From: Escherichia coli | Lineage (GTDB): Bacteria > Pseudomonadota > Gammaproteobacteria > Enterobacterales > Enterobacteriaceae | Length of the DNA stretch: 64,000 bases | Direction: 5' to 3' (one strand) | Assembly (NCBI RefSeq): GCF_044647545.1 | Contig: NZ_CP172818.1 | Shown here: positions 1,488 to 55,653 of the stretch, in pieces | How positions within the stretch are numbered: the first letter of the stretch is position 1 | How the letters are laid out: each line of letters begins with the position of its first letter | Position numbers and translations under genes: made by a program | Notes under the pieces: generated by a model | The model's input: the letters and a program-made list of their open reading frames with translations, nothing else | Told to the model about the DNA's origin: nothing | Database searches by the model: none

Positions 1488-1700
1488 GTCCTTTCGTAAA
1501 ACTTTCGTTTCATTTCGTTTTGCCTATTAACGCCTTTCTATTAAGCAAATGCAAGCCCACCTTACCCATTGGCGCAAGCTACTCTCGTTTCAGTGGCTTT
1601 CATTATGTTTCTTTTGTGAATCAGATCAGAAAACTATTATCTTTCGTTTTATTTTTATCTCACCATGGCGCAGTATCAACTGAAACAAAACGAAAGATTA
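1488..1700. promoter_or_regulatory. agaR-kbaZ divergent promoter region with repeated TTTCRTTT/CTTTC motifs (putative AgaR operators)
   Basis: Multiple direct and inverted copies of ctttcgttt, tttcatttcgtttt, gaaacaaaacgaaag in a 250-bp AT-rich intergenic region; AgaR operators are known to be CTTTC-rich. Confidence 0.5.
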
Positions 1701-1730: not shown

Positions 1731-3011
1731 GTGAAACATCTGACAGAAATGGTGAGACAGCACAAAGAGGGCAAAACAAATGGGATTTATGCCGTTTGTT
1801 CCGCACATCCGCTGGTGCTGGAAGCTGCAATCCGCTACGCCAGTGCAAACCAAACGCCGTTACTGATTGAAGCAACCTCCAATCAGGTGGACCAGTTCGG
1901 CGGTTATACCGGAATGACGCCCGCCGATTTTCGCGGCTTTGTTTGTCAGCTCGCCGACTCGTTGAATTTCCCACAGGATGCGTTGATTCTGGGTGGCGAC
2001 CATCTGGGGCCAAACCGCTGGCAAAACCTGCCTGCCGCTCAGGCAATGGCCAATGCCGATGATTTGATTAAAAGCTACGTGGCGGCAGGATTCAAAAAAA
2101 TTCACCTTGATTGCAGCATGTCCTGTCAGGACGATCCGATTCCCTTAACTGATGACATCGTGGCCGAACGCGCCGCTCGTCTGGCGAAAGTGGCGGAAGA
2201 AACCTGCCGTGAACATTTTGGCGCGGCCGATCTGGAGTATGTCATTGGTACCGAAGTACCGGTACCTGGCGGCGCGCATGAAACCTTAAGCGAGCTGGCG
2301 GTCACCACGCCGGATGCCGCCCGCGCCACACTGGAAGCCCATCGCCACGCCTTTGAAAAGCAGGGCCTGAATGCCATCTGGCCACGCATTATTGCCCTGG
2401 TGGTTCAACCCGGCGTCGAATTCGATCACACCAACGTTATTGATTATCAGCCAGCTAAAGCGACCGCATTAAGCCAGATGGTCGAAAACTACGAAACGCT
2501 GATTTTCGAAGCGCACTCTACCGATTACCAAACGCCGCAATCGTTGCGCCAGCTGGTGATTGACCACTTTGCCATTCTGAAAGTTGGCCCGGCGCTGACC
2601 TTCGCCCTGCGTGAAGCTCTGTTCTCTCTGGCGGCGATTGAAGAAGAACTGGTGCCAGCAAAAGCCTGTTCTGGTCTGCGTCAGGTGCTGGAAAACGTGA
2701 TGCTCGACCGCCCGGAATACTGGCAAAGCCACTACCACGGTGACGGCAACGCGCGTCGTCTGGCGCGTGGTTATAGCTACTCGGATCGCGTGCGCTATTA
2801 CTGGCCGGACAGCCAGATTGATGACGCTTTCGCTCATCTGGTTCGTAATCTGGCGGATTCACCAATTCCGCTACCGCTCATCAGCCAGTATTTGCCGCTG
2901 CAATACGTGAAAGTTCGCTCCGGCGAGCTGCAGCCAACACCACGGGAACTCATTATCAACCATATTCAGGACATCCTGGCGCAGTACCACACAGCCTGTG
3001 AAGGCCAATAA
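1731..3011 (+). CDS. kbaZ: KbaZ (AgaZ) tagatose-bisphosphate aldolase non-catalytic subunit
   Basis: 426-aa ORF beginning GTG at 1731; recognised sequence. Confidence 0.9.
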
Positions 3012-3033: not shown

Positions 3034-3507
3034 ATGCCAAATATTGTTTTAAGCCGGATTGATGAGCGTTTGATTCACGGTCAGGTCGGCGTTCAGTGGG
3101 TCGGATTTGCGGGGGCAAATCTGGTGCTGGTAGCCAACGATGAGGTTGCCGAAGATCCGGTACAACAAAACCTGATGGAAATGGTACTGGCAGAAGGGAT
3201 CGCCGTACGTTTCTGGACGCTGCAAAAAGTCATCGACAACATTCATCGCGCCGCCGATCGACAGAAAATCCTGCTGGTTTGTAAAACACCTGCCGATTTC
3301 CTGACGCTGGTGAAAGGTGGCGTTCCGGTGAATCGCATTAACGTTGGCAATATGCACTACGCCAATGGCAAGCAACAAATCGCCAAAACGGTTTCTGTGG
3401 ATGCGGGTGATATCGCAGCATTTAACGACCTGAAAGCCGCTGGGGTGGAATGCTTCGTTCAGGGCGTCCCGACAGAGCCTGCTGTGGACCTCTTTAAATT
3501 ACTTTGA
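3034..3507 (+). CDS. agaV: AgaV, PTS N-acetylgalactosamine-specific EIIB component
   Basis: ATG at 3034 (MPNIVLSRIDERLIHGQVG...), 157 aa; the track ORF begins 12 codons upstream. Confidence 0.9.
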   Translation: MPNIVLSRIDERLIHGQVGVQWVGFAGANLVLVANDEVAEDPVQQNLMEMVLAEGIAVRFWTLQKVIDNIHRAADRQKILLVCKTPADFLTLVKGGVPVNRINVGNMHYANGKQQIAKTVSVDAGDIAAFNDLKAAGVECFVQGVPTEPAVDLFKLL

Positions 3508-3517
3508 GGGATTCATC

Positions 3518-3919
3518 ATGGAAATCAGTCTGTTGCAGGCATTCGCGTTGGGCATTATCGCCTTTATCGCTGGCCTGGATATGTTTAACGGCCTAACCCA
3601 TATGCACCGCCCGGTGGTCCTCGGCCCGTTGGTCGGGCTGGTACTTGGCGATCTGCATACCGGTATTTTAACCGGCGGTACGCTGGAACTGGTGTGGATG
3701 GGGCTGGCCCCGCTGGCGGGCGCACAGCCGCCTAACGTGATTATCGGTACTATCGTCGGCACGGCGTTTGCCATTACTACTGGCGTGAAACCCGATGTCG
3801 CGGTCGGTGTCGCCGTACCTTTCGCTGTCGCAGTACAGATGGGGATTACCTTCCTGTTCTCGGTGATGTCCGGCGTGATGTCCCGCGGCGACCTGGCAAC
3901 AAACCCGTGCCGCGTTTGA
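3518..3919 (+). pseudogene. agaW: agaW' fragment of PTS EIIC component (N-terminal part only)
   Basis: 133-aa ORF with IIC-like transmembrane N-terminus that terminates prematurely; matches the truncated agaW of K-12, where agaE/agaF are missing. Confidence 0.8.
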
Positions 3920-3938
3920 CGCTGGTGCCGACGGCCTG

Positions 3939-4442
3939 GTGCATTGCTATAACGGGATGACAGGTTTACATCACCGCGAACCGGGAATGGTTGGCGCGGG
4001 ATTAACGGACAAGCGCGCCTGGCTGGAACTGATAGCCGATGGTCATCATGTACATCCGGCGGCGATGTCGCTGTGTTGTTGCTGTGCGAAAGAGAGAATC
4101 GTGCTGATCACCGACGCGATGCAGGCAGCCGGGATGCCGGATGGTCGCTATACGTTATGTGGTGAAGAAGTGCAGATGCACGATGGCGTTGTCCGTACCG
4201 CGTCCGGTGGGCTGGCGGGCAGTACGCTGTCTGTCGATGCGGCAGTGCGCAACATGGTCGAGTTGACGGGCGTAACGCCTGCGGAAGCCATCCATATGGC
4301 ATCGCTGCATCCGGCGCGTATGCTGGGTGTTGATGGTGTTCTGGGATCGCTTAAACCGGGCAAACGCGCCAGCGTCGTTGCGCTGGATAGCGGGCTGCAT
4401 GTGCAACAAATCTGGATTCAGGGTCAATTAGCTTCGTTTTGA
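3939..4442 (+). pseudogene. agaA: agaA' fragment of N-acetylgalactosamine-6-phosphate deacetylase (C-terminal part only)
   Basis: 167-aa ORF corresponding to the C-terminal region of a NagA-like amidohydrolase; no N-terminal metal-binding region. Confidence 0.8.
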
Positions 4443-4518
4443 TGGTTTGCTCCTTTATTGGGCCTTCACTTCCCCCGTAAGGCCTTTCTTTTTCTTTCTT
4501 TTTGATCTGTGCAGCGGT

Positions 4519-4575
4519 GTCGGATGCGACGCTGACGCGTCTTCTTCGACCTACGGTACGCCGCATCCGGCAATC
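4519..4575. repeat. REP-like palindromic element
   Basis: gtcggatgcgacgctgacgcgtcttcttcgacctacggtacgccgcatccggca; reverse complement begins GCCGGATGCGGCGTA, typical of REP. Confidence 0.5.
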
Positions 4576-4599
4576 GGTGAACATAGCGACGTTATCACG

Positions 4600-4755
4600 C
4601 AATCCTTTAATCTTCCCTTGTCTTTTCTTTCAATGATCACAAATTTCGTTTTATTTCTTTTTTCTCCATTGAACTTTCAGTTTCTTTTCTATAGATTTTA
4701 ATCAACGAAAGACATCACCAAGTGAAATGAAACGAAAGGTAAGCGAAAGCGACAA
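4600..4755. promoter_or_regulatory. agaS promoter region with CTTTC/TTTCRTTT repeats (putative AgaR operators)
   Basis: Clustered motifs cttttctttc, tttcgttttatttc, tttcagtttcttttc, gaaatgaaacgaaag directly upstream of agaS. Confidence 0.5.
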
Positions 4756-4792
4756 CGCCCGACGCCAAGTTCATCAGACTAAGGATTGAGTT

Positions 4793-5947
4793 ATGCCAGA
4801 AAATTACACCCCTGCTGCCGCTGCAACCGGTACATGGACTGAAGAAGAGATCCGCCATCAGCCTCGCGCATGGATCCGTTCACTCACCAACATCGACGCG
4901 CTACGTTCCGCGCTCAATAACTTCCTTGAACCGTTACTGCGCAAAGAGAATCTGCGGGTAATCCTGACCGGAGCCGGAACCTCGGCATTTATCGGTGATA
5001 TCATCGCGCCGTGGCTCGCCAGCCATACCGGTAAAAACTTCAGCGCCGTACCGACCACCGATCTGGTCACTAATCCGATGGACTACCTGAATCCAGCTCA
5101 TCCGCTACTGTTGATCTCCTTCGGTCGATCCGGCAACAGCCCGGAAAGCGTCGCCGCCGTGGAACTGGCGAATCAGTTTGTACCGGAATGCTATCACCTG
5201 CCGATCACCTGCAACGAAGCGGGCGCTCTTTACCAAAACGCGATCAACAGCGACAACGCGTTTGCCCTGCTGATGCCCGCAGAAACGCACGATCGCGGCT
5301 TTGCGATGACCAGCAGCATTACCACCATGATGGCCAGCTGCCTCGCGGTTTTCGCACCTGAGACGATCAACAGCCAAACCTTCCGCGATGTGGCAGATCG
5401 TTGCCAGGAAATCCTGACCTCACTGGGCGATTTCAGCGAAGGTGTGTTTGGTTACGCACCGTGGAAACGGATCGTTTATCTCGGCAGCGGTGGCTTACAG
5501 GGCGCAGCACGCGAGTCGGCGCTGAAAGTACTGGAACTGACAGCGGGTAAACTGGCGGCCTTTTATGATTCCCCGACCGGATTCCGTCATGGCCCGAAAT
5601 CGCTGGTCGATAACGAAACGCTGGTGGTGGTGTTTGTCTCCAGCCACCCTTACACCCGTCAGTATGATCTTGATCTGCTGGCAGAACTCCGCCGCGATAA
5701 CCAGGCATTGCGCGTAATCGCCATCGCCGCGGAAAGCAACGACGTTATTACCGCCGGTCCACATATCATCCTGCCGCCGTCCCGTCACTTTATCGACGTT
5801 GAGCAGGCATTTTGCTTCCTGATGTACGCCCAGACGTTTGCACTGATGCAGTCGCTGCACATGGGTAATACGCCGGATACCCCATCAGCCAGTGGCACCG
5901 TTAACCGCGTGGTGCAAGGCGTAATCATTCATCCGTGGCAGGCATAA
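4793..5947 (+). CDS. agaS: AgaS, SIS-domain sugar isomerase/deaminase (putative galactosamine-6-phosphate deaminase)
   Basis: 384-aa ORF; recognised sequence. Confidence 0.92.
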   Translation: MPENYTPAAAATGTWTEEEIRHQPRAWIRSLTNIDALRSALNNFLEPLLRKENLRVILTGAGTSAFIGDIIAPWLASHTGKNFSAVPTTDLVTNPMDYLNPAHPLLLISFGRSGNSPESVAAVELANQFVPECYHLPITCNEAGALYQNAINSDNAFALLMPAETHDRGFAMTSSITTMMASCLAVFAPETINSQTFRDVADRCQEILTSLGDFSEGVFGYAPWKRIVYLGSGGLQGAARESALKVLELTAGKLAAFYDSPTGFRHGPKSLVDNETLVVVFVSSHPYTRQYDLDLLAELRRDNQALRVIAIAAESNDVITAGPHIILPPSRHFIDVEQAFCFLMYAQTFALMQSLHMGNTPDTPSASGTVNRVVQGVIIHPWQA

Positions 5948-6820
<873 letters not shown>

Positions 6821-30522: not shown

Positions 30523-30597
30523 AATAAATTCTCCTGACAAAAAAGGGGCTGTTAGCCCCTTTTTAAAATTAATTTCAGGTGGAAGGGCTGTTCACGT

Positions 30598-30672
30598 TGG
30601 CCTGATAAGACGCGCCAGCGTCGCATCAGGCAATCCATGCCGGATGCGGCGTAAACGCCTTATCCCGCATGG
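30598..30672. repeat. REP elements in the infB-rbfA spacer
   Basis: gcctgataagacgcgccagcgtcgcatcaggc and gccggatgcggcgtaaacgccttatcccgcatgg. Confidence 0.7.
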
Positions 30673-55101: not shown

Positions 55102-55653
55102 TTATTTCGTTGTACCCACAGGTTCAGTGGTTTCATTATTACCTGGCGCAGCAGCTGGCGCATCGCCACTATTCTTATTGTCATCGCCTTTACTACCGTA
55201 AAGGAACTGACCAATGAGATCTTCCAGCACCATCGCAGACTTGGTGTCCTGAATTGTATCGCCATCCTTCAGGATAGCAGTCCCCAGTTCCGGGTCTTCA
55301 AAACCGACGTTTAATGCCAGATATTGTTCCCCCAGCAGGCCGGAAGTACGAATGCTCAGCGAACTGGTATCAGGAATGTGGTTATAACGTTGTTCAATTT
55401 CCAGCGTTACGCGCGGCAGATAGGTTTTCGGGTCCAGCGTAATATCCGCCACCCGGCCCACAACAACGCCACCAATGCTGACCGGAGAGCGCGCTTTCAG
55501 GCCGCCAATGTTATCGAACGTCGCATAAAGCGTATAGGTCGGTTCAGTACGTATGGACGTCACGTTCGCCGCCTTCAGGCAAACAAACAGCGCCGCCAGT
55601 AGTGCTGCTAATAAAAAGATACCCACCCAAATTTCATTTTTTTTCGTTTGCAT
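55102..55653 (-). CDS. mlaD: MlaD, MCE-domain substrate-binding protein
   Basis: ATG at 55653 (MQTKKNEIWVGIFLL), 183 aa. Confidence 0.93.
   Translation of the reverse strand: MQTKKNEIWVGIFLLAALLAALFVCLKAANVTSIRTEPTYTLYATFDNIGGLKARSPVSIGGVVVGRVADITLDPKTYLPRVTLEIEQRYNHIPDTSSLSIRTSGLLGEQYLALNVGFEDPELGTAILKDGDTIQDTKSAMVLEDLIGQFLYGSKGDDNKNSGDAPAAAPGNNETTEPVGTTK

Follow-up and report, generated by a model that had tools for sequence, protein, structure and literature searches.

Probable AgaR-repressed agaS promoter, putative terminator and REP insertion in the agaA'-agaS spacer of Escherichia coli

The aga cluster and the agaA'-agaS spacer

The window, by which we mean the whole 64-kb stretch of E. 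coli DNA that was analysed, carries an aga gene cluster with the following members around the region studied here.

673-1482, (-): agaR, ORF; Pfam HTH_DeoR 1.9e-21 and DeoRC 3.3e-55
1731-3011: kbaZ
agaV, between kbaZ and agaW'
3518-3919: agaW'
3939-4442, (+): agaA', ORF; truncated GalNAc-6-P deacetylase gene, C-terminal 167 aa
4793-5947, (+): agaS, ORF; SIS domain 2.8e-41 (Pfam)
5960-6820: kbaY

From agaR to agaB the cluster aligns without gaps to MG1655, at ~96.5-98.7% identity outside a single variable block that is described below. The agaR gene is collinear with b3131 of MG1655 and encodes a DeoR-family repressor, which is presumed to recognise the TTTC boxes in the spacer. The agaA' product matches only positions 194-342 of the 345 in the Pfam Amidohydro_1 profile, corresponding to the C-terminal third of an amidohydrolase. 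Both its length and its junction are those of the MG1655 pseudogene b3135, which carries the K-12-type agaW'/agaA' deletion. While the deletion (window 3518-4442) is as in MG1655, the cluster is nevertheless ~2-3% diverged from K-12 and has another REP-block haplotype, and a query from 3300 to 5000, which spans the deletion junction, is covered to at least 80% in only 374 of 5426 genomes (best match, 97.9%). The presence of a K-12-type deletion on a diverged background points to a deletion that is either recurrent or old, or else to recombination. In E. coli FDAARGOS_497 (L001:7688-8941), the spacer is 100% identical to that of the window and the agaVWEFA segment is complete; the agaB gene of that strain is interrupted by an IS1 insertion. 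At the level of the transcript, PMC6172242 describes weak binding of the sRNA Tpke70 to agaS mRNA in vitro.

The spacer between agaA' and agaS occupies 4443-4792 (350 bp). For comparison, we compiled 80 agaS loci from Enterobacterales, one genome per species, including Escherichia, Citrobacter, Enterobacter, Klebsiella, Raoultella, Kluyvera, Salmonella, Yersinia, Buttiauxella, Serratia and others. agaA lies directly upstream of agaS in most of these loci, with a spacer of ~240-305 bp, or 343-350 bp in Escherichia.

Hairpin, T-tract and REP elements at the agaA' end

The upstream part of the spacer contains these features:

4460-4485, (+): terminator-like hairpin, GGGCCTT-C-AC / GT-AAGGCCU, 18 nt after the agaA stop
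4485-4503, (+): T-tract of the putative terminator, directly after the hairpin; hairpin and T-tract make up the first 60 bp of the spacer
4519-4554, (+): REP1, a complete REP unit; 12/13 of the consensus in the left half and 14/17 in the right half (half-site fuzzy matching), terminal CTAC
4559-4571, (-): REP2 remnant, the initial 13 nt of another REP in inverted orientation and an exact match to the REP left half, GCCGGATGCGGCG
4553-4614, (+): hypervariable block whose sequences in different E. coli haplotypes are unrelated

An earlier reading of this DNA, made from the sequence only, had described CTTTC-rich tracts downstream of the REP palindrome. The tracts are there, but TTTC-type repeats also occur upstream of the REP (4483-4506), and the first tract (4485-4503) sits behind a hairpin that the sequence-only reading had missed. 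In this strain the hairpin is weak, with a mismatch in its stem (-10.9 kcal/mol, z -0.59, by RNA folding); its homologues from Enterobacter, Citrobacter, Yersinia and Kosakonia reach -13 to -17 kcal/mol. Across 44 sequences, compensatory double changes are found at all nine of the nine stem pairs. Stem cells are paired in 95.9% of cases, as compared with at most 58.7% in slid controls, and none of 500 shuffles reaches the observed values. A terminator scan missed the hairpin at 4460-4485, its only terminator-like match falling inside REP1; the consensus scanner is too strict for a mismatched hairpin, as it also is for a weak promoter. The hairpin and T-tract are most likely the intrinsic terminator of the kbaZ-agaVW'A' operon. 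They resemble intrinsic terminators in having a GC-rich hairpin and then a T-rich tract after a stop codon, with a stem that covaries across genera. Unlike in intrinsic terminators generally, the T-tract is here broken by conserved C residues that keep the register of the AgaR boxes, and the stem is mismatched and weak. Because of the C residues in the T-tract, the efficiency of termination is uncertain.

Further downstream, a single REP-like palindrome had been proposed at 4519-4575. The assignment to REP holds in kind, but the palindrome is not one element: it consists of a complete REP followed by half of another. Its inverted-repeat arms (4518-4531 and 4559-4572, 14 nt, 86% complementary) are, judging from the half-site matches to REP1 and the REP2 remnant, the 5' arms of two REPs pairing with each other. 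As in the REP and BIME elements of E. coli, we find a ~36-nt imperfect palindrome with a CTAC end in an extragenic, multi-copy setting. Differing from a standard REP, REP1 has two changes in its right arm that weaken its own stem (TTCTTC, as opposed to TTATCC in K-12). The K-12 allele of REP1 is a near-perfect REP, and its T:A change, as read from the sequence, is compensatory. The K-12 spacer also places REP1 tail-to-tail with an inverted second REP in a BIME-like arrangement, whereas only the 13-nt left half of that second REP is present in the window.

The repetitive nature of this stretch is evident from its copy number. The REP core 11-mer occurs four times in the 64-kb window, against 0.13 expected, and blastn places the 69-nt REP stretch in 5425 of 5426 E. 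coli genomes, at a median of 8 sites in each. A 95%-identical copy of REP1 is found at an unannotated site in a genome that is otherwise without a match to the spacer. One of the four core copies belongs to a canonical BIME at window 30596-30670, between infB and rbfA, where two inverted REPs are separated by AATCCAT. The feature table of NC_000913.3 lists no repeat features at the spacer, nor at the infB-rbfA REP cluster, so that their absence from the table is uninformative.

The REP elements are part of a larger unit, a ~110-bp insertion that is, by sequence comparison, confined to Escherichia and multi-allelic. REP core words upstream of agaS are found in the window and in four Escherichia loci, and in none of 76 other loci. 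The hairpin, the T-tract and a TCYTTTCYTTnnCGATCACA box are common to the spacers of Escherichia and Enterobacter, and the distance from the T-tract to the GATCACA box is ~121 nt in Escherichia versus ~10-13 nt in Enterobacter. These three shared features were used to set the insertion point by hand, MAFFT having placed the gap at the 5' end. Within E. coli, positions 4553-4614 show 43.5% ungapped identity to MG1655, compared with 95-98% in the flanks. K-12, O157 and CFT073 have a full inverted REP2 in the block; in the window, WEC, 7CC and 05_3471 it holds the half REP and other sequence. Each of the two haplotype blocks is common and single-copy per genome, one occurring in at least 1171 genomes and the other in at least 1387, these counts being lower bounds because the word-size limit leaves the rest uncounted. 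When the reverse complement of one block was compared by eye with the other, they did not match, and an inversion was rejected. Comparison with other E. coli agaS promoters, which had been suggested as a check on the sequence-only reading, shows that the promoter part of the spacer (4615-4792) is nearly invariant within the species. Because the REP block is found only in Escherichia and varies in its alleles while the promoter part does not, it appears to be a recent, variable passenger lying outside the conserved regulatory design.

Could the REP palindrome instead be the functional centre of the spacer, as the terminator or mRNA stabiliser of agaA or as a regulator of agaS, for instance through IHF or gyrase binding as at BIMEs? 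It does sit between two operons, and its predicted hairpin is strong: 4512-4580 folds at -31 kcal/mol (z -2.3), and the K-12 allele at -40.6 kcal/mol (z -3.5). An Rfam scan of 3900-5300 returned only the REP-derived naRNA4, at a weak 19.8 bits against a gathering score of 59.5, and we did not count this sub-threshold score as evidence. Nevertheless, the REP is missing from all 76 non-Escherichia loci, which keep the terminator and the promoter. It is also multi-allelic within E. coli, with a decayed REP1 right arm in this strain, and the conserved terminator hairpin, a distinct structure, precedes it. We therefore consider a central role for the palindrome improbable.

TTTC boxes around the agaS promoter

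The features of the downstream part are given below, with positions relative to the predicted start.

4621-4641, (+): TCTTTTCTTTCAATGATCACA box, containing the conserved GATCACA at 4635-4641
4643-4657, (+): O_up, predicted AgaR box ATTTCGTTTTATTTC, centre ~-54; 2 mismatches to the functionally used 15-mer
4669-4674, (+): putative -35 hexamer TTGAAC, 17 bp before TAGATT; TTGA invariant or near-invariant in 20 genera
4674-4689, (+): O_core, CTTTCAGTTTCTTTTC, filling the -35/-10 spacer; direct-repeat families D1 and D2
4692-4697, (+): putative -10 hexamer TAGATT, conserved across genera
4704-4711, (-): half-box CTTTCGTT, direct-repeat family D3; Escherichia lineage only
4724-4738, (-): O_down, predicted AgaR box CTTTCGTTTCATTTC, centre ~+27
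4742-4749, (-): half-box CTTTCGCT, direct-repeat family D3; Escherichia lineage only
4781-4795, (+): Shine-Dalgarno AAGGA and agaS ATG; CTAAGGA...ATG conserved across genera

The pyrimidine-rich CTTTC/TTTC repeats had been noted to run in both orientations, and this is borne out by direct and inverted TTTC repeats at 4603-4749. They also exceed chance by far and concentrate in the aga spacers. The 64-kb window has six copies of TTTCRTTTYRTTTY, all within the two aga spacers, and nine matches to CTTTCGTTTCATTTC with three or fewer mismatches (2.2 expected), seven of them in aga spacers. The tri-TTTC pattern TTTCNTTTYNTTTC occurs six times, as compared with 0.06 expected under a Markov model, and five of the six fall in the same kind of location, the two aga spacers. 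The lone match elsewhere, TTTCATTTTTTTTCGTTT at window 55632-55649, has no obvious aga link.

O_down is identical to a box at 1502-1516 in the agaR-kbaZ spacer. It also has the same sequence as the opening 15 nt of the AgaR site from P_kbaZ (PMC8667592 Table S3), which conferred AgaR-dependent repression when placed in a synthetic promoter by Guharajan et al. (PMC8667592). The agaR-kbaZ spacer as a whole carries the same motif family, with boxes at 1502, 1641 and 1682. That spacer also contains a good CRP-type site, TGTGAATCAGATCAGA at window 1613-1628, adjoining the AgaR box at 1641-1655. The kbaZ promoter is reported to need cAMP-CRP (Ray & Larson 2004).

The boxes are also conserved in other genera. 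Over the 80 loci, the 450 bp before agaS hold 195 matches to TTTCNTTTYNTTTC and the remainder of the loci only four, which amounts to 5.4 versus 0.009 per kb. The matches fall into three classes, each with a fixed strand and position around the conserved TTGAAC-17-TAGATT hexamers. A distal plus-strand box is present in 56 of the 80 loci; the O_up class, on the plus strand ~150 bp before the ATG, has a strict match in 56 of 80; and the O_down class, on the minus strand ~70 bp before the ATG, has one in 79 of 80. The sequence-only reading would have been refuted by a lack of these repeats in other aga clusters, but they are clearly conserved in the 80 Enterobacterales loci. In an alignment of 20 genera, the conserved segments are GATCACA (4635-4641), TTTCGTTTTATTTC (4644-4657), TTGAAC (4669-4674), CTTTCAGTTTCTTTTC (4674-4689), TAGATT (4692-4697), GAAATGAAACGAAAG (4724-4738) and the Shine-Dalgarno with the ATG. 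O_up is near-invariant across the 20 genera, O_core retains a block CTTTCrnTTTCTTT, and in O_down GAAA..AAACGAAAG is invariant. The half-boxes at 4704-4711 and 4742-4749 show no conservation outside Escherichia in this alignment.

Two further conserved elements were seen in the loci of other genera. A palindrome, GATGTGGAATTCACA, is located in the agaS leader ~25-45 nt before the ATG (L014-L053; e.g. L018:2455-2480) and is common to Citrobacter, Enterobacter, Klebsiella, Raoultella, Kluyvera and Kosakonia, with other sequence in its place in Escherichia; possibly another regulator acts there. A conserved AT-rich block, AAATCnTTATAnATCAATnAGATA, is found between the terminator and the GATCACA box, ~170-200 nt before the agaS ATG (L014-L035, L061-L064), in genera with ~300-bp spacers, and is absent from Escherichia and Enterobacter.

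The positions conserved around the boxes coincide exactly with the two hexamers: T4692, A4693, A4695, T4696 and T4697 each show conservation of 90% or more among genera, and 4690-4691 vary. We infer that TTGAAC-17 bp-TAGATT is a weak sigma-70 core with a predicted start at ~4704-4705. It scores 8/12 in the consensus scanner, which reports no promoter in the spacer at its 9-of-12 threshold. A literature search of published start-site tables yielded nothing usable for the agaS start. With this predicted numbering, boxes at ~-54, across the -35/-10 spacer and at ~+27 would have the geometry expected for repression by occlusion. GATCACA, found in ~15 of the 20 aligned genera, is possibly a CRP half-site, with its centre at ~-71 if transcription starts at 4704. 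When 4626-4641 is compared with TGTGA-N6-TCACA, 7 of 10 positions agree; a perfect right half, GATCACA, is joined to a left half that matches poorly and lacks conservation.

Published work on the aga genes agrees with a promoter at this site. According to PMC3668189, AgaR binds the agaR, kbaZ and agaS promoters. The same paper reports ~20-fold induction of a Ps-lacZ fusion by GalNAc, where Ps is the agaS promoter, and agrees with PMC4694137 that agaS is constitutive in a delta-agaR strain; both papers cite Ray & Larson 2004. The AgaR-controlled agaS promoter first proposed from the sequence is thus supported by the 15-nt match to P_kbaZ, the shared motif family, the conservation in 80 loci and the published AgaR-Ps binding.

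Other explanations for this part of the spacer fare worse than a central REP. One would make the agaS 5' leader (~4704-4792) a cis-acting regulatory RNA, for example a riboswitch or attenuator, in place of a DNA operator region. The predicted leader is ~88 nt long and does have a conserved block. It matches no Rfam family, however, and the only leader parts conserved across genera are the AgaR box and the Shine-Dalgarno, the former having exactly the sequence of a DNA operator that is functional when moved to a heterologous promoter. This makes an RNA element very unlikely. Even less credible is the view that the CTTTC/TTTC tracts are low-complexity, pyrimidine-rich spacer DNA without sequence-specific function. 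The region is T-rich, and the first tract doubles as the T-tract of the putative terminator, but exact 14- and 15-mers are common to the agaR-kbaZ spacer and a functional AgaR site, box position and orientation are kept in 79 of 80 loci, in genera that range from Escherichia to Yersinia and Serratia, and the motif is ~600-fold enriched upstream of agaS. Finally, the ORF at 4447-4701 (+), with its 84 open codons and TTG start, has next to no chance of encoding a small hydrophobic protein and is spurious, as had been suspected: it is intact in some strains only, with 38 aa left in K-12 and O157 and just 4 aa in CFT073 and A42, it has no Pfam match and no preceding Shine-Dalgarno, and its frame extends over hairpin, REP, hypervariable block and promoter.

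A possible distal operator and the overall arrangement

With the AgaR-repressed promoter as the preferred reading of the downstream part, the T-tract behind the hairpin deserves a second look. It is almost invariant, being TTTCTTTTCCTTTC in most genera and TTTCTTTTTCTTTC here (4485-4498). Positions 4485-4498 fit the TTTCNTTTYNTTTC pattern, and 4484-4498 differ from the functionally used 15-mer by three mismatches. Because the tract keeps the same tri-TTTC register as the AgaR boxes, it may double as a distal operator, for which 4485-4498, at ~-213, is a candidate. The C positions of the tract are conserved across genera while the stem covaries freely, which argues for a constraint at the level of DNA. 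We tentatively suggest, while thinking it somewhat less likely than not, that TTTCTTTTYCTTTC (4485-4498) could serve both as the U-tract in RNA and as a distal AgaR operator in DNA, cooperating with the promoter boxes, e.g. by looping. Displaced by the REP insertion in Escherichia, the candidate distal box now stands 159 bp ahead of the first promoter box, as opposed to ~47-102 bp, and regulation has not obviously suffered. This dual use of the T-tract might be new, and is the only, if mildly, new idea to come from the analysis.

Taken together, we consider it highly probable (roughly 0.9) that the spacer is a composite of three ordinary elements: a terminator, a REP insertion and an AgaR-repressed agaS promoter, Ps. 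In the proposed arrangement, the hairpin and T-tract at 4460-4503 would end the kbaZ-agaVW'A' transcript. The REP insertion, consisting in this strain of one complete and one half REP, would be dispensable for regulation. Transcription of agaS would begin near 4704 from Ps, a weak sigma-70 core of TTGAAC-17-TAGATT. The AgaR boxes, with TTTC units every 5 bp, would surround Ps at ~-54, in the -35/-10 spacer and, inverted, at ~+27, possibly with a distal one in the T-tract. AgaR (673-1482) would bind these boxes as an oligomer and block the binding or escape of RNA polymerase, and catabolism of GalNAc or GalN would lift the repression.

An AgaR-repressed agaS promoter is already known and fits the published aga/gam regulon. 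The closest known system is Ps of E. coli K-12 (Ray & Larson 2004, Mol Microbiol 51:813, by way of PMC3668189 and PMC4694137), which is the same locus, with a divergent agaR placed alike. Only six differences from MG1655 occur in the promoter-proximal 178 bp, and the box family is the one found at P_kbaZ and P_agaR. The strain analysed here differs from K-12 in the REP-block allele upstream of the promoter. A more distant parallel is the tag cluster of E. coli Nissle, where TagR, a DeoR-family repressor, has several CTTTC operators over the start site, beside a CRP site (PMC12226905); the authors of that study note the resemblance of tag to aga. As regulator, inducer and operator sequence all differ between TagR and AgaR, we treat this as an analogy only, as we do for other DeoR-family sugar repressors such as GlpR and DeoR.

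The region is a textbook internal promoter of the aga/gam regulon with an adjoining REP, and it has little import beyond correct annotation. What the analysis provides is a single-base map of the spacer, with a terminator, a REP insertion, a candidate CRP half-site, three or four AgaR boxes and the -35 and -10 hexamers, in which some placements are predicted. For the modelling of agaS regulation the REP block can be left out, and the tri-TTTC pattern TTTCNTTTYNTTTC offers a practical search motif for AgaR sites. The arrangement of the spacer is conserved across Enterobacterales.
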